Positions 51,449 to 64,000 of a stretch of DNA of 64,000 bases are shown one piece after another. Numbering within the stretch: the first letter of the stretch is position 1; each line of letters opens with the position of its first letter. Origin of the DNA: Candidatus Latescibacterota bacterium (GTDB taxonomy: Bacteria > Latescibacterota > UBA2968 > UBA8231); the NCBI GenBank assembly GCA_965197905.1, contig CBDAOB010000003.1, forward strand, positions 704,001 to 768,000, in the 5' to 3' direction. The notes below the pieces were generated by a model. The model made no database searches, was not told the origin of the DNA, and saw only the letters and a program-made list of their open reading frames with translations. The position numbers and the translations under genes are program-made.

Positions 51449-52522
51449 ATGGCAAAGCTGTCACTGCCTGACGGAGCCAAGATTGTCGACGGTAGCATTC
51501 GGTTCCAGGCTGCCGACGATCCCGATGAAACAATCAACCAGCTCCGCGGCAAACCTTTCAACGACGATGAATGCGAGGGTGTGCGGGAATTCCTCGTTGG
51601 CAATCTGTCGCTGAAGGAAACCGTAACAAAGCATCTCAGCCGCTTTCAGAATGAGGAAGAGACATCTCGTCTATTGGTCCGAGTCTGGATGCTGACCAAG
51701 TTCGGTGCGCGGTTCTCCTCCGTGCTCGACCAATTGAGTAAAAGTGTCGAAGCCGAACACGAAGACTTCACCGTAGTTTTCATGAAGCTGTATCAGCAGC
51801 TGGAGGATTACCGCAAGCGTTCGACGGAGTTGAATATTCGGCGACCTCCTGCCGTGGAACGGATCCAACTGAACATCGAGGAGTCGGCGGGGCGCAGGGT
51901 ATACTCTTGCGACGTCGAATCTCAAGGCAAACCCGTAGAGCATGCCGCGACAGACGATCGGAAGGATTCCGTCCTGCGCCGGCATATCGAGCAATTCAGG
52001 CGCATGACCGATGTGCCTGCACTGCGCAAGAGCGTCACAGCCATCGAAGAATTTCTGCTCGGACGAAAGTCACTGCAGAATTCAGTGACGTCGATGGCTG
52101 CCATGCCTTCCGGGTCTTCGCCCGCGGTTAGCGAAACCGCGGAAGAGAGAGAAGTCAATGCGGTTTCCAGTTTAATGGCAGCGTGGGTGGCGGTAGCGTT
52201 CGATCTGGCGTGGCGGGAGTTGAACGAGTACGTGAGATGGCTGTTGCGTCGTGGTGTGCCGCCGCTGGAGGAACTCTTCTACGGCCTGGTTGGTAGATTC
52301 GATAGCGTCGCAAACCTGGAAGAGGAGTACAAGCTGCACCATTCGACCATCGTTTCGCTAATGCAATACGCTATGGCACAATTGCAGCCTGCCGAAAATG
52401 AAAAAAGCGACTTGTCAAAGATCAGTTGGAAGCGGTTTGACGGCGACTCGGTGCCAGTCGAGCAGCGCCCGGAGGTTGCCGAGAAATTGATGCAGGCGCT
52501 TCAAGATTCGGACTCGTCTTAG
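51449..52522 (+). CDS. Hypothetical protein
   Basis: 357-aa ORF with helical, acidic composition and AT-rich upstream region; no motif recognised. Confidence 0.65.
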   Translation: MAKLSLPDGAKIVDGSIRFQAADDPDETINQLRGKPFNDDECEGVREFLVGNLSLKETVTKHLSRFQNEEETSRLLVRVWMLTKFGARFSSVLDQLSKSVEAEHEDFTVVFMKLYQQLEDYRKRSTELNIRRPPAVERIQLNIEESAGRRVYSCDVESQGKPVEHAATDDRKDSVLRRHIEQFRRMTDVPALRKSVTAIEEFLLGRKSLQNSVTSMAAMPSGSSPAVSETAEEREVNAVSSLMAAWVAVAFDLAWRELNEYVRWLLRRGVPPLEELFYGLVGRFDSVANLEEEYKLHHSTIVSLMQYAMAQLQPAENEKSDLSKISWKRFDGDSVPVEQRPEVAEKLMQALQDSDSS

Positions 52523-55008: not shown

Positions 55009-56754
55009 CTAAAGGAAAGAACTGCGCACCAGTCCCTCCTGCTCTTCCCATTGATGCAGGATGGAGCGGGACCGACGCAAATAGTGACGATAGCGGTCGT
55101 CGAGCAAGTTTTTCGACCTGTTTCCCAAGCGACCTCCAATCAGCGCATTGTATTTTCCCCGGGCTTGGGTAACGCGCCGGCCCTTTGGGTTGACGGCGAT
55201 CGTCATCAAGCGCTGTGAGTTGCCACTCCCGTCGGAGATCTGTAGGGAAAACACCGCCTTGGAGCCGCGCCGGCAGGTGTGCACGTAGGTCCGCACACAG
55301 TGATGCATCGCTTTGCCTTCTGCTACCAGCTCGTGGGTAGTGGTCACCTCCGAGATGGACCATGTGAGCATCTTGTCGGTCTCTTCGTCGTGCTCTGTGA
55401 CGGAAAGCTCACCCACGCCACAGGGTTGCCATTGATTCGAGGGGACCCGTTGATCTCGCACCAACCTCGCATGCCATTGTTCAACGTAGCGCAACAGCTT
55501 GTCCACGCTGCGACTCTTCATCGAGAGATTCGCTTGGAGAGGATCTTGTAACTCTATGCGCCCACCCGGCAAAACCACCTCCTGTCGTTCGAATTTCTGA
55601 TCCTGTATGTAGTCGACGATCGGTCCGATCCATTCGGGATCTAGCATGGGGTGTAACGTCAGCCAATGAATGAAAGTGGACCAGAAGGCCTCGTTCTCGA
55701 GTGATTCTCCAAGGCGGGTGGCGACCACTGCTTCGACCAATTCCTCGGATCCGTCCTGGCCAACGATCTGACCATAGCGCAACGCTTCGAACAGGGAGTA
55801 GCGATCCGGGGCAAGCAGAAACTCATGAGCCATTCGTTTTGTGAGGTTCACCGCGAGATCGGGGGCCGTCCGAATGTTGGCCCCCATACCCACGTGTATG
55901 AACCATCTCTGCTGCCGGTCCGTCTCCAGGGCATCCTCGGTCGGATCATGAAAGAAGGCGGTGTCGAAAAAGGCGGGCACGTGATACCTGGCCAGCAGAT
56001 GGCGGGCCAACGATCCGAACTGAAGGCGGGGATTGTGTCTCTCCGGTCGCCAATGGTCGGGACCGCGCAGCCAGTCCGCCTGCCGTCTGGCAAGAGCGGC
56101 CAGGCCGTCGATCCAGGTATTGCCCGTCCGGGCGCCAAAGCGGGTGATGGCTGGCGTTGAAACATCGAACAGATCCGCCCGCGACCGATCGACATCGAGC
56201 AGTAGGTCGCGAAACGCCTGGCGAACCGGCTGTTGATCGGACAACTGCCCGGCAATCTCCGCGATGCGGGCCATGTACTCGGGTCGCAGATCGTCCGTGG
56301 CAACCGAACCTTCGAAAATCCCGGTGATCGTATCCCGGGGTCGTCGGGTAATCCGGCGCACCTTGCGCAGAACCGCCTGGCTGGTCAGGACGCGTACCAT
56401 GTCCAGCTCTTTGCGTCGTGGACGGTCCCCTTTGTGCAGCGCGTCACTCAAATTCTGCTCCCGACACCAAGCCTGATAGGCCTGCGTCGAACCCAATCCC
56501 AAAGCTTTTACGTGGGCAAGAACCGCTTTGTCCGCCGCCGCCGCTTTAGCATCGCGTTTAACTGCGGCGCGCTCAACCCGGCGATCTTGCCAGCTCTTGT
56601 TGAGGGCAGCCGTAAAACCGTGCTCACGACACCAGTATTGATATTGGGCGACCGTCTGTAGTCCCAGAGACTCGATGTGATCGGTCAGATGAGCATTGGC
56701 CCGTGCCTGAGCACCCCGGCGACGACGTTTCCTTTTTTCGTTGGTCTTTGGCAT
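55009..56754 (-). CDS. PcfJ domain-containing protein (paralogue 2)
   Basis: Collinear with 35711-37315; 'ELVAEGKAMHHCVRTY...QARGKYN'; start placed at MPKTNEK. Confidence 0.8.
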   Translation of the reverse strand: MPKTNEKRKRRRRGAQARANAHLTDHIESLGLQTVAQYQYWCREHGFTAALNKSWQDRRVERAAVKRDAKAAAADKAVLAHVKALGLGSTQAYQAWCREQNLSDALHKGDRPRRKELDMVRVLTSQAVLRKVRRITRRPRDTITGIFEGSVATDDLRPEYMARIAEIAGQLSDQQPVRQAFRDLLLDVDRSRADLFDVSTPAITRFGARTGNTWIDGLAALARRQADWLRGPDHWRPERHNPRLQFGSLARHLLARYHVPAFFDTAFFHDPTEDALETDRQQRWFIHVGMGANIRTAPDLAVNLTKRMAHEFLLAPDRYSLFEALRYGQIVGQDGSEELVEAVVATRLGESLENEAFWSTFIHWLTLHPMLDPEWIGPIVDYIQDQKFERQEVVLPGGRIELQDPLQANLSMKSRSVDKLLRYVEQWHARLVRDQRVPSNQWQPCGVGELSVTEHDEETDKMLTWSISEVTTTHELVAEGKAMHHCVRTYVHTCRRGSKAVFSLQISDGSGNSQRLMTIAVNPKGRRVTQARGKYNALIGGRLGNRSKNLLDDRYRHYLRRSRSILHQWEEQEGLVRSSFL

Positions 56755-56911
56755 CGAAATCGTTGATGGCGGTGTCCAGTCAATCTGCCTCTTCCGCGTG
56801 GTCAATGTCAAGCAGTAGCCTGACCCTCGAAGTTGACCCGGCCTTCCTTTTCGGTTTGATTGAAAACACATCTTCGGCTGTCGGCATTCCTTTTTGCAAA
56901 CTTGGGAAACA

Positions 56912-57940
56912 ATGGTAGAGATTGATGATGATCGTGAGGGGGAAGAGCCCGATATTCCCGTATTGCAAAAGGTGGGTATCGTCATGGTGGCCCTAGGTGA
57001 GGAGGTCTCGGGCGAAGTCATGAAGCACCTCAGCGACTACGAAATCGAAGAGATCACTCAGGCGATCGCCTCCCTCAAGAACATCTCTACCGAGTTGATA
57101 GACCAGGTTCTCGACGAGTTTGAGCAACACTTGATGGCCGGCGAGTGGATAGCTCAGGGCGGCATGGACTTCGCGCGTGCCGCTTTGGAACGCGCCGTGG
57201 GACCGCGACGGGCGCAGGAAATCCTTGAACGGGTCGGCAGCAAGGTCTCCTCCGGGTTCTACATTCTCAAGAATGTCGCATCGGACCAGATCGCCCCGTT
57301 TATTTCCAACGAGCACCCTCAAACCATTGCCCTGATTCTATCTCAGCTGGATTTTGCCCAGAGCGCCGGAATCCTGGCGCAACTTGCGGAGCGCCTGCAG
57401 GCGGATGTCGCCTACCGCCTGGCAACAATGGAGAATATTACGCCCAACGTCATCAAGGAGATCGAAGAAGCCCTCGAACAGTCCTTGAAGGATATTCTTG
57501 GCGGCGATCAGGACGTAGGCGGGCCGAAGGTGGTCGCGGACATACTGAATCTAACCGGTTCCAGCGTGGAAAAGAGTGTTCTCGATCAGATGGATGGTCA
57601 GGATCCGGAAGTGGCCGAAGCCGTCCGCAACCTCATGTTCGTTTTTGCCGACATCGTCAAACTGACCGATCGCGAAATTCAGACTCTGCTGCGGGAAGTC
57701 GATCAGAAGGACCTGGTTATCGCCTTGAAGACTGCCGAGGACGAACTCAAGGACAAGGTGCTGGGCAACATGTCCGAGCGCGTGCGCACCTTCGTAAACG
57801 AAGAGATGGAATTCCTCGGGCCGATGCGTGTAAGCGAGGTCGAAGAGGTTCAACTGAGAGTAGTGCAACAGGTCCGTCAGTTGGAGGAACAAGGTCAGGT
57901 TACGATCGTCCGCGGCGACTCCGAGGATGAGTTCGTATAG
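56912..57940 (+). CDS. fliG: Flagellar motor switch protein FliG or paralogue
   Basis: 'EHPQTIALILS', 'GGPKVVADILN', 'MFVF.D', 'NMSER', 'LGPMRVSEVEE.Q'. Confidence 0.9.
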   Translation: MVEIDDDREGEEPDIPVLQKVGIVMVALGEEVSGEVMKHLSDYEIEEITQAIASLKNISTELIDQVLDEFEQHLMAGEWIAQGGMDFARAALERAVGPRRAQEILERVGSKVSSGFYILKNVASDQIAPFISNEHPQTIALILSQLDFAQSAGILAQLAERLQADVAYRLATMENITPNVIKEIEEALEQSLKDILGGDQDVGGPKVVADILNLTGSSVEKSVLDQMDGQDPEVAEAVRNLMFVFADIVKLTDREIQTLLREVDQKDLVIALKTAEDELKDKVLGNMSERVRTFVNEEMEFLGPMRVSEVEEVQLRVVQQVRQLEEQGQVTIVRGDSEDEFV

Positions 57941-61151: not shown

Positions 61152-61242
61152 GAGAATCTCCTCTCCCAACAATAAATCAACTGCCAAACGGTGGTTGGCA
61201 AATAATCATTACAACTTTCAAGCAGGTTCGCAATAGCAGACC

Positions 61243-61308
61243 TTGCCTTTGAGTCTCCTTAAGCGTATTATTCAACAATCTGGTTTTCTTTAGCGAACTA
61301 AATGGAGG
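61243..61308 (+). promoter_or_regulatory. Sigma70-type promoter and RBS of the RNAP-like gene
   Basis: TTGCCT-N17-TATTAT (61243-61271); GGAGG at 61304-61308. Confidence 0.6.
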
Positions 61309-61312
61309 TTCT

Positions 61313-64000
61313 ATGACTGTCGGGGAATGTGCAACCCATTCAAAGAGATCCGCAACGCTGCGGTTGGGTCCGCTGATGCGCTCGACCGCTGAGGAATTCG
61401 GATCAGCGTTGCGTCGAACCTTGATGCGCTTGCCGGGTCTGGCCGCACGCGCCGTGAAAATGGAGGCGGCTCACGAATTCTCTTTGCTCCCGGGGGTCGT
61501 CGAGGACGCGCTAGAGATCGTGGAGAATCTAAGATTGATCCAGTTCCGGGGTGGCGATGGACCGCACTACGTGACCATCGATGTGGAGGGGCCGGCTGCA
61601 GTGACCGGATCGGATCTGGCTGGTCCCGGACTGCAGGTGGTGAACCCGAATCAACCGATTGCCACGGTGAATCACGGTGGACGCCTCGAAATGAAGGTTG
61701 AGGTGGCTCTCTCGTTGGATCGGGAATCAGGCCGAGACCGTCGCACCGGGGGTTTCCTGGAGGTCGGCGGCGTCTCTCATCCCGTTACTCGGGTGCAGCT
61801 ACACGTGGAAGAGCGCGATAAAGGGGCGTTCTTGAGCTTGAGCGTGGCGACCAACGGAAGCGTCGAGCCCCGGGTGGCCATCGATCAGGCGGCAACTCTG
61901 CTAGCGTCAGTAGCGACAGGCGAAAGGACTCGGGCCCTCTGCCGCCAGGTTTTGAACGCAAAGACGTTGTCGGAGCCGGCGACTAAGGCGCCACCTCCGG
62001 TCCCGACAGCCCGTGACCTGAGCAAGATGCCACCGGGCATCGAAGTTCCAGACCTTACGGAGTTGTGCCACAGTTCGTTCGAATCCTTTGCACAGCGCGG
62101 GGTGGCACCCAGCCGGCGCCGAAACTCGGGGTTGCAACGATTGCTAAAAGAGGCCTTCGCGGTACAGGAGGAAGCCGAGTTCTCCAGCTACACCCTTAGC
62201 GAGCCGCACTCTGAACCCTCGGAATGTGTGAAATACGGTACGAGCTACCAAGCCGAGTTGACGGTTCGTCACAAGCGGAATGGTGCCCATACAGCCGAAG
62301 ATACGGTTGTGGGTCACCTACCCGTGATGACGGCTCGCGGAACCTTCGTGGTCTCTGGTGTGGAGAAGGTGGCGATGGGCGAGTTGGTGGACGCCTGCGC
62401 GAACAGGACCACGCGGGAGAACGATCTGGCCGAGCGCCGTATAAGGCTCGTAGGAGAGCAGCTGTTCGAGGCATTGGCCGGTGCTTTCGACAGTGCCACC
62501 GAGCAGGAGAATGAACTCCGATTTCCTTACTTCGCTGAAACCGTTAGTAGTTTTTTTACCGCAAATCCGTTGGTGCAACGAGCGGAGACCACAAACCCGC
62601 TGGCGCTCTTGACCCAGCTGCGCCGGGTGGTGCAAACGGATGTGGGTCGGCAACGGGGCTATCTGCCGCGCCAGATTCACCGGTCCCATTGGGGCCGTCT
62701 CTGCAGCATCGATACGCCGGAAGGGGAGCGGATCGGTCTGAATCTGACCGTGGCGGTCCTCGCAGGGGTAGACGAGGATGGCTTCCTTACCGCACCGTAC
62801 CGGCGTCGAACGGACGGCGATCTGGCGTATCTCAACGCCGCCGAGCAGGCGGCCACGACCGTCACCGACGGTTGCTGCTCGGATGGTGACCTGGTCGCCC
62901 GCTACGGCGGCAAGATTCTGGCGCTGAAAGCGGGCGAGATCGTGCGAACCGAGGAAGGTGATGTTGAGTACCTCACCACTCACTCGGCGCACACCCTGGG
63001 TCCTTCCGCCAGCCTCATTCCGTTTCTGGCCAACGACGATTCCAACCGTGCGTTGATGGGGAACAATATGCAAAAGCAGGCGCTGCCTCTGCTCCATCCT
63101 CAGGCTCCGATGGTGCGGACGGGAATGGAAGGCCGCGTCGCCACAGATGCGCGCGCCGCCGTTCTGGCGCCCGCTGAAGGGGTGGTTGAGCGGGTGTCGG
63201 CGGAAGAGATCGTCGTCCGCGGTCACGGCGAACACTCCTTTGGACTGGAAGGGTTTGTTCCCTCTGCCCTCAGTACCTGTCAACGGCAACGACCGTTGGT
63301 TCGACGCGGCCAGAGTGTCACCGCAGGTCAGGTCCTGGCGGACGGTCCTGCCACCGACCATGGAGATCTGGCGCTGGGTCGCAACGTCCTGGTCGGTTTC
63401 CTGCCGTGGGATGGGTTCAATTTCGAGGATGCTGTCGTTGTAAGTCAGCGACTGGTTGACGAAGAAGCGTTCACCTCAGTCAAGGTGAAGGAATACATCG
63501 ACGTGATCCGGAATACCGACACAGATCGCCTCTCCATCGGGATCGGCCACTTGCCACGCAGCACCGGTGACAACCTGTCTCCGTCCGGAATCGTACGCGA
63601 GGGAGCGTCGGTCGCGGGAGGCGATATTTTGGTCGCCAAGTCGACCTCCGGAGCGGAGAGGATCGACCGCTCGCTGCGCCTGCCGTCCGGGCATGCGGGC
63701 ACCGTAATCGGAGTCGATCATTTCATCGCGGACCAGGGCGACCCGTTGGCCGCGAATGTCGAGCAGCTCATCAAGATAAGGGTGGCTGTGCGCCGGCCAC
63801 TGAAGGTTGGGGACAAGCTGGCCAGTCGTCATGGCGCCAAGGGAGTGGTGGGATTGGTTCTTCCCGAAGACGAGATGCCGGTGTTGCCCGACGGAAGGGC
63901 GCTGGAGATGTTGGTGAGCCCGCTGGGATTGCCCAGCCGCATGAACTTCGGCCAGATCCTCGAAGCCCACACCGGCTTTGCTGCCCACGCGCTCAATTGC
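61313..64000 (+). CDS. RNA polymerase alpha-NTD fused to a divergent, minimised beta subunit (partial: 896 codons, no stop before window end)
   Basis: Hand translation gives one open frame. Alpha-like: 'GSALRRTLMRLPG...HEFSLLPGVVED..EI..NL...TNGSVEP'. Beta-like: 'GTFVVSGVEKV', 'HWGRLCSIDTPEG.RIGL', 'LIPFLANDDSNRALMG.NMQKQA', 'GFNFEDA', 'GDKLASRHGAKGVV', 'PSRMNFGQILE'. Confidence 0.9.
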   Translation, partial: MTVGECATHSKRSATLRLGPLMRSTAEEFGSALRRTLMRLPGLAARAVKMEAAHEFSLLPGVVEDALEIVENLRLIQFRGGDGPHYVTIDVEGPAAVTGSDLAGPGLQVVNPNQPIATVNHGGRLEMKVEVALSLDRESGRDRRTGGFLEVGGVSHPVTRVQLHVEERDKGAFLSLSVATNGSVEPRVAIDQAATLLASVATGERTRALCRQVLNAKTLSEPATKAPPPVPTARDLSKMPPGIEVPDLTELCHSSFESFAQRGVAPSRRRNSGLQRLLKEAFAVQEEAEFSSYTLSEPHSEPSECVKYGTSYQAELTVRHKRNGAHTAEDTVVGHLPVMTARGTFVVSGVEKVAMGELVDACANRTTRENDLAERRIRLVGEQLFEALAGAFDSATEQENELRFPYFAETVSSFFTANPLVQRAETTNPLALLTQLRRVVQTDVGRQRGYLPRQIHRSHWGRLCSIDTPEGERIGLNLTVAVLAGVDEDGFLTAPYRRRTDGDLAYLNAAEQAATTVTDGCCSDGDLVARYGGKILALKAGEIVRTEEGDVEYLTTHSAHTLGPSASLIPFLANDDSNRALMGNNMQKQALPLLHPQAPMVRTGMEGRVATDARAAVLAPAEGVVERVSAEEIVVRGHGEHSFGLEGFVPSALSTCQRQRPLVRRGQSVTAGQVLADGPATDHGDLALGRNVLVGFLPWDGFNFEDAVVVSQRLVDEEAFTSVKVKEYIDVIRNTDTDRLSIGIGHLPRSTGDNLSPSGIVREGASVAGGDILVAKSTSGAERIDRSLRLPSGHAGTVIGVDHFIADQGDPLAANVEQLIKIRVAVRRPLKVGDKLASRHGAKGVVGLVLPEDEMPVLPDGRALEMLVSPLGLPSRMNFGQILEAHTGFAAHALNC

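Follow-up and report, generated by a model that had tools for sequence, protein, structure and literature searches.

What does a bacterium that has a complete RNA polymerase (RNAP) do with an additional, much reduced one? The question is raised by the window, a 64,000-nucleotide stretch of a Candidatus Latescibacterota genome (assembly GCA_965197905.1, contig CBDAOB010000003.1, positions 704,001–768,000). At its end lies the 5' part of an open reading frame (ORF) for a 1,917-residue protein that joins the N-terminal domain of the RNAP alpha subunit, beta and beta' in a single chain (Table 1). The NADFDGD motif, the bridge helix and the trigger helices are encoded past the window end, and intact rpoA, rpoB and rpoC genes are present elsewhere in the genome. 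The initial annotation of the window held that the beta lobe had been cleanly removed from this protein, as selected miniaturization, perhaps for templates that are single-stranded or already opened. The boldest reading that we consider, to which we give a probability of roughly 0.35, is that a copied transcription enzyme was turned into a one-chain, damage-induced polymerase acting on single-stranded DNA (ssDNA), which would lay down RNA primers or patches or coat invading DNA, with two ssDNA-sensing switches wired to it, and that it represents one step in a series of fused, progressively stripped RNAPs.

The lobe junction and the parts of the chain

Upstream of the junction, the beta homology ends in the block GTFVVSGVEKVAMGEL (window positions 62339–62386), and homology to RpoB resumes at DLAERRIRLVGEQL, both in the same open frame as the rest of the chain. 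The two blocks were said to be joined by about 13 residues; the joining stands, but the linker that takes the place of the lobe counts 12. In E. coli RpoB, about 300 residues lie between the equivalent blocks. Over the matching interval, the host RpoB counts 238 residues and the fused chain, by alignment, 10–11, so that about 230 lobe residues are gone. The RNA_pol_Rpb2_2 domain (PF04561), expected to be absent, had no Pfam match in the chain at E ≤ 1.

The genome is metagenome-derived, and the missing lobe might have been an assembly artefact or a deletion private to this bacterium, with extra sequence hidden at 62387–62420. Contigs from three of four runs, belonging to three studies (one possibly the source sample), covered the junction without any insertion; in the fourth run, contig coverage had a gap there. 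The same junction was present in a single-contig genome and in all 22 aligned members of the family (the basis of all counts out of 22 given here), which have 26–29 residues at the lobe position. The artefact or private deletion, whose probability we regard as practically nil, is thus already refuted by the family-wide junction and the spanning contigs, and the clean, in-frame removal of the lobe was borne out by the open frame, the alignment and Pfam as well.

AlphaFold2 models were made in two halves, comprising residues 1–1060 and 718–1917. The blocks flanking the junction were modeled with confidence, at a predicted local distance difference test score (pLDDT) of 85–90 before the linker and 73–92 after it, and only the linker itself was poor. 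The anticipated superposition on bacterial RNAP was weak globally: the first half-model, with a mean pLDDT of 66.6, matched RpoB as a whole with a template modeling (TM) score of 0.39. The second half-model (pLDDT 79.5, predicted TM score 0.79) resembled RpoC chains, with TM scores of 0.56–0.60 and a superposition of about 5 Å over about 960 columns. The beta barrel, which would meet its partner at one active site, was of low confidence in both.

The lobe is one of many peripheral parts that are missing. The structural elements, whose names and boundaries we take to be those in common use, were mapped onto the chain by motif. Compared with the host, the clamp head is reduced from 121 residues to 11, the beta' zinc domain from 70 to 25 with no cysteines, the rudder from 19 to 2–8, the lid from 23 to 14 and the SI3/jaw region from 258 to 34–38; much of the clamp helices is lost too, the fork loop is shorter than in host RpoB and the rifampicin-pocket segment is remodeled. 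There is no alpha C-terminal domain, the NCBIfam rpoA models reaching residues 8–199 only, and a modeled extra helix that follows (residues 204–214) may shield the alpha dimer face. Retained are the fork, the motifs of both barrels, the bridge helix, the trigger helices, the funnel, the second zinc site and, for templated synthesis, the parts that bind the hybrid and those of the switch. The missing beta insertion SI2 was dismissed as a special feature, canonical RpoBs also being without it.

The chain resembles the bacterial core RNAP and the RpoBC fusions of Helicobacter and Wolbachia in block order and active site, with 30–45% identity in the blocks kept. Unlike these, it is an extra copy beside rpoA, rpoB and rpoC with an alpha N-terminal domain fused to it, and unlike the core enzyme it is without lobe, flap tip, zinc domain, clamp head, lid, rudder, jaw and alpha C-terminal domain. 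It also falls below every NCBIfam cut-off, including those of the rpoB and rpoC equivalogs. By the missing parts, the intact subunit genes elsewhere and the unmet cut-offs, the 1,917-residue chain is not the housekeeping core RNAP.

Catalytic residues, selection and relatives

Eight invariant residues define the two-barrel polymerases: DxDxD, an aspartate in beta, an arginine and a proline in beta' and two lysines in beta (PMC2919709). The corresponding D1328, D1330, D1332, D706, R1293, P1295, K835 and K843, mapped by motif, are all present in 22/22 members. As read from the alignment, the catalytic centre is complete: the two-metal active site is intact, and the bridge helix is kept along with the trigger helices. 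By the eight residues the family belongs to the two-barrel polymerases, and in sequence it is neither a housekeeping RNAP nor YonO-like. Around this centre, the residues that mark DNA-dependent two-barrel RNAPs are present: the switch-2 lysine K1204 and the funnel-set residues R1562 and R876 were found in all members and G1560 in 21/22; two neighboring switch-2 arginines are replaced by W and by A or T throughout, and the trigger-loop histidine occurs in 7/22 only, with T in the 1,917-residue chain.

The ratio of nonsynonymous to synonymous substitution rates (dN/dS), measured over 1,917 codons against a same-genus orthologue, was 0.22, above the 0.11 and 0.03 of two neighbor genes. Such a ratio, the many lost parts and two cluster relatives that look truncated or split would suit a decoy that binds alpha, sigma or phage proteins and whose catalysis is unimportant, or else a duplicate in decay. 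Set against this, the catalytic residues and four zinc cysteines are invariant at about 45% identity, and what has been lost is just those surfaces on which a decoy would depend; we consider a decoy or decay very improbable. The proposal that the miniaturization was selected is supported by the family-wide deletion, the invariant catalytic residues, the dN/dS value and the many other peripheral losses.

Among 334 matches to the chain, the top 23 and one fragment were family members without the lobe domain, and a profile search, with sequences clustered at 50%, gave eight representatives scoring more than 300 bits. Most members have the alpha part; five start at beta. The gene occurs in 4/168 genomes of the phylum and in two Lentisphaerae-type genomes, nine metagenome loci were found, and viral contigs yielded 38 pattern matches, none of them a relative of the family. 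A match in G001 was rejected as a broken piece of an ordinary rpoB–rpoC. In G023 the polymerase gene is spread over two contig ends, C28 and C65 (L033 and L034), with matches overlapping by about 90 codons, which may be an assembly break or two copies.

As anticipated, close homologues share the deletion. Distant alpha-fused paralogues of 1,950–2,440 residues (P0024, P0025, P0028, P0263 and P0268) retain the lobe; in P0261, and largely also in P0280, the lobe is absent with clamp head and lid retained. P0024, P0025, P0028, P0261 and P0268 contain, in addition to the first, a shortened alpha-like segment, and by eye look like Rpb3 and Rpb11 paired within a single chain; P0025 has an alpha C-terminal domain at its extreme C-terminus. 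Members of the family have no second alpha-like segment, only the extra helix, and some no alpha at all.

The genome also has a third polymerase, a beta–beta' gene of 1,019 residues that overlaps an upstream extracytoplasmic function (ECF) sigma gene. It belongs to a family of about 1,030 residues found in 18/41 relatives, with a sigma gene alongside in 13 of these 18 genomes. Its lobe is cut at the same boundaries and DFDGD is kept; unlike the 1,917-residue chain it has no alpha part, flap or trigger, only half a bridge helix and no operator upstream. About half of the 41 relatives have rpoB and rpoC within one open frame of about 2,640–2,700 codons, by fusion or in-frame spacing. A subset of P0287–P0380 contains many other beta–beta' fusions of 1,900–2,200 residues with DFDGD, remote from both the canonical enzymes and this family and perhaps of organellar or phage origin.

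Quick trees, all with long branches and without L053 (for which no full frame was recovered), placed every fused paralogue on one side against the canonical enzymes, with support in the Shimodaira–Hasegawa-like approximate likelihood ratio test (SH-aLRT) of 95–100. Separate beta and beta' trees grouped the family with the approximately 1,030-residue family (SH-aLRT 87 and 92, unstarred). In a joined tree with more paralogues, the lobe-bearing P0263 was the sister (97) and the lobe-less P0261 was placed elsewhere. A sister relation between the two miniature families is not established, nor is it established that the lobe was lost just once, the trees disagreeing on the number of losses.

Two candidate switches

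A palindrome of the type GGTTCGC-N4-GCGAACC lies upstream of the gene in 6/6 alpha-bearing loci having upstream DNA. In the window there are two such operators, with a putative promoter between them, and G002, G157 and L041 have a comparable layout. To scan 6.69 million positions, a matrix was built from 12 sites at the loci of other genomes. The four best sites of the genome were the two at the polymerase promoter and two others, also 57 bp apart, before a gene for a repressor of the xenobiotic response element (XRE) family on contig C1; a scan for paired sites gave three pairs, of which these two promoters were the top. Next to the XRE gene is one for an HExxH peptidase, and the best PADLOC matches of the two were capH (1.7e-14) and capP (1.5e-20), in output without curated cut-offs.

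The repressor occurs in 14/168 genomes, including 4/4 that bear the polymerase. The peptidase adjoins it in 14/14 loci (one fragmentary) and the operator is present in 12/14. A paired pattern derived from these sites matched in 8/14 genomes, at seven repressor and two polymerase promoters, with none in the control. Orthologues of the repressor and peptidase lie immediately upstream of the polymerase in 2/6 alpha-bearing loci, divergently in L033 and on the same strand in L048. The polymerase promoter and its putative regulator thus share a palindromic operator, the predicted repressor site. In G011 (L109:1501–2272) one strong operator stands alone, about 190 bp ahead of two small genes that resemble a toxin–antitoxin module, presumably DUF4160-like; it is possibly a further target or a promoter remnant.

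The palindrome resembles the Geobacter-type LexA box. An SOS regulon was rejected, as the matrix gave negative scores in the upstream DNA of both LexA-domain genes, and N-terminal sequences at the 66 listed sites, inspected by eye, included no recognizable repair gene.

CapH–CapP, DdrO–IrrE and ImmR–ImmA follow a common plan, an XRE repressor beside an HExxH peptidase of the M78 family, of which there is also a sigma variant. CapP is activated by ssDNA (bioRxiv 2022.04.27.489752). We consider it probable, from the shared sites and these precedents, that the XRE protein binds both promoters and is removed by the peptidase: damage or infection would expose ssDNA, the peptidase would sense it and cleave the repressor, as CapP and IrrE do, and the host polymerase would then transcribe the gene, which would otherwise be repressed. 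The arrangement differs from CapH–CapP operons in that what the pair seems to control is a polymerase gene, in many cases located on a different contig, a target not named in the text available of that preprint, and the rule that the regulator lies upstream and divergent does not hold here. RNA polymerase is not mentioned in the part available of PMC13228613 on CapH–CapP.

Most operons linked to CapH–CapP encode defence systems, either established or putative, and 24 antiphage systems that signal through cyclic oligonucleotides (CBASS) have capH–capP with a sigma factor (bioRxiv 2022.04.27.489752). The polymerase might accordingly be an immune effector, induced in infection to make untemplated or loosely templated polymers or to drain nucleoside triphosphates, arresting the cell; its patchy spread and the altered template-holding arginines and trigger histidine fit such a role. 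However, the polymerase itself had no PADLOC match, its fork, hybrid-binding and switch parts suit templated synthesis, and it was not found in the viral contigs. Furthermore, it is a lone gene among housekeeping-type neighbors, syntenic in G002, with no signs of an island and no step in GC content. We regard an immune effector as improbable.

The alpha-less members have a different cassette. In 3/4 distinct loci, genes after the polymerase encode a sigma factor, a 125-residue protein with a weak capH match (E 2e-4; a query of the ESM Atlas gave no result) and a capP-like peptidase; in the fourth genome the cassette is on another contig. A motif with a dyad core, TGTCACG-N5-RCGT, precedes the polymerase in 3/3 loci for which upstream DNA is available, and in 3/4 it precedes the sigma gene. 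The derived pattern occurred only at those two places in G168, at those and one more in G169, and not in the control; the additional match sits within an unrelated ORF and was rejected as a target. The motif may be the sigma factor's promoter or an operator. As it precedes both genes, the cassette fits regulating the polymerase gene rather than serving the enzyme, and looks like a regulator of it. A complex prediction of residues 420–1075 of an alpha-less relative with the neighboring sigma gave a score of 0.00, which we counted neither way.

Table 1. Features of the polymerase gene, its regulators and other genes (window positions unless a contig is named).
Feature	Position	Strand	Basis and remarks
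Operator 1, imperfect palindrome abutting the -35 box	61225–61242	+	22.3 bits, second-best site of the genome; kept in G002
Sigma-70-type promoter (inferred), TTGCCT-17-TATTAT	61243–61271	+	Sequence reading
Operator 2, 57 bp downstream of operator 1	61282–61299	+	23.5 bits, best site of the genome; best pair in paired scan
5' part of 1,917-residue alphaNTD-beta-beta' gene	61313–64000, on to G000:C3:771066 (L001:5313–11066)	+	ORF
Alpha N-terminal (assembly) domain, single copy	61361–61909	+	Pfam RNA_pol_A_bac, RNA_pol_L
Extra helix after alpha domain	61922–61954	+	AlphaFold2 pLDDT about 85; LC motif in family consensus
N-terminal part of beta (protrusion), to the end of GTFVVSGVEKVAMGEL	62018–62386	+	Alignment
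Linker in the place of the lobe	62387–62422	+	Alignments, spanning contigs
DLAERRIRLVGEQL, restart of RpoB homology	62423–62464	+	Alignment
Fork region	62579–62767	+	Pfam Rpb2_3, alignment
Beta ED motif (second metal site)	63425–63430	+	Alignment; invariant in 22/22
Short turn in place of flap-tip helix	63647–63664	+	7 residues, 27 in host RpoB; 5–19 in family
GDKLASRHGAK, with two catalytic-site lysines	63809–63841	+	K835 and K843 in 22/22
capH-like XRE gene and capP-like HExxH peptidase gene	G000:C1:112606–113933 (L075:8606–9933)	-	Paired operators, PADLOC
1,019-residue beta–beta' gene with overlapping upstream ECF sigma gene	G000:C5:903587–907203 (L003:8587–12203)	-	
357-residue ORF	51449–52522	+	No Pfam family; conserved in G002
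PcfJ-like protein	55009–57021	-	Two frames in G002
FliG gene	56894–57940	+	No adjacent flagellar gene; 99% identical in G002

The proposed activity and its weighing

Deletion of the lobe in E. coli impairs downstream unwinding and escape, and pre-melted DNA rescues the defect (PMC3632114); the lid prevents extended hybrids (PMC5467207), and RNA displacement needs the non-template strand (PMC7598289). Together with the complete catalytic centre, the missing downstream channel and lid and the few sigma contacts, these data make us favor synthesis on single-stranded or opened DNA. Without a downstream-DNA channel, surfaces for docking sigma or a lid to peel off the RNA, the polymerase would not open promoters; it would use ssDNA, gaps or bubbles as templates, and the RNA made would remain annealed. 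Such RNA might serve as primer or patch where DNA is damaged, or cover DNA that invades the cell. That the enzyme is damage-induced, sigma-independent and makes annealed RNA on single-stranded or opened DNA is a tentative conclusion, for which we would put the chances somewhat below even.

The main competitor is a second transcriptase in the manner of YonO. Once induced, it would transcribe a limited number of genes from ordinary double-stranded promoters, recognized by a specificity of its own or through a sigma factor, and neither pausing nor the factors or drugs that act on the host enzyme would affect it. YonO provides the precedent (PMC5467207), the switch-2 lysine, the funnel glycine and arginine and the bridge and trigger helices are retained, and the rifampicin pocket is remodeled. 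In addition, a sigma gene is adjacent in 3/4 alpha-less loci and beside the smaller lobe-less relative in most of its genomes. On the other hand, the flap tip, the lid and much of the clamp helices, which we take to be sigma-binding surfaces, are gone, and the shared motif of the alpha-less loci suits a regulatory cassette. This genome has no homologue of the cassette sigma, and no conserved candidate target genes were found near the polymerase loci. According to PMC5467207 the missing domains are dispensable in mild in-vitro conditions, and ordinary transcription of a small regulon thus keeps some probability, which we nevertheless place on the unlikely side.

Several other observations weigh against the ssDNA polymerase that we prefer. 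The retained switch-2 lysine and funnel residues are tied to transcription of double-stranded DNA (PMC2919709), and the trigger-loop histidine is mostly missing. YonO, without the domains in question, forms stable elongation complexes (PMC5467207), and Orf6 of the yeast plasmid pGKL2, without lid or rudder, is taken to be that plasmid's transcriptase (PMC2919709). Lobe-less relatives occur with sigma factors. No repair gene lies beside any locus examined, and the relatives are not independent, representing about three lineages. The switch has its own weak points. The regulator pair is not adjacent to the polymerase in 4/6 alpha-bearing loci and is on another contig in this genome, and 10/14 repressor-bearing genomes have no such polymerase, so that the repressor may have other targets. 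Single operators below 19 bits are at chance level (at 13 bits, 66 observed and 56 expected), and the palindrome was first spotted by eye in a set including this genome, so that the matrix scan was not blind. The suggestion of single-stranded or pre-opened templates is therefore plausible: the rescue of the E. coli lobe deletion and the apparent ssDNA-sensing gate speak for it, and YonO and the sigma-linked relatives against it.

Among known single-chain enzymes, YonO of phage SP-beta and the NCgl1702-like proteins likewise have a reduced periphery and the eight invariant residues. What YonO has in common with cellular enzymes is limited to a few catalytic residues, and it is without a trigger loop (PMC5467207); the 1,917-residue chain, in contrast, is derived from RpoA, RpoB and RpoC, keeps the trigger helices and had no relatives in the viral contigs searched. 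Orf6 of pGKL2 is similarly fused and halved (PMC2919709), but is of eukaryotic origin and plasmid-borne, with no homology to the trigger and no alpha-like part. The parts available of PMC8103513 and PMC7824862 contain nothing on the family. No description of it was found in the literature searched, one key review and supplementary tables being outside its scope.

Bacteria are taught as having one RNA polymerase; this chromosome encodes three, the normal enzyme and two miniature relatives. The 1,917-residue chain is a natural combination of lobe, lid, rudder and flap-tip losses, each of which has so far been studied singly in E. coli, and as a single expressible gene it makes the capacity of a minimal cellular-type polymerase directly testable. 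If the damage switch is true, it would connect DNA repair or immunity with an RNA polymerase in a manner absent from the literature searched.

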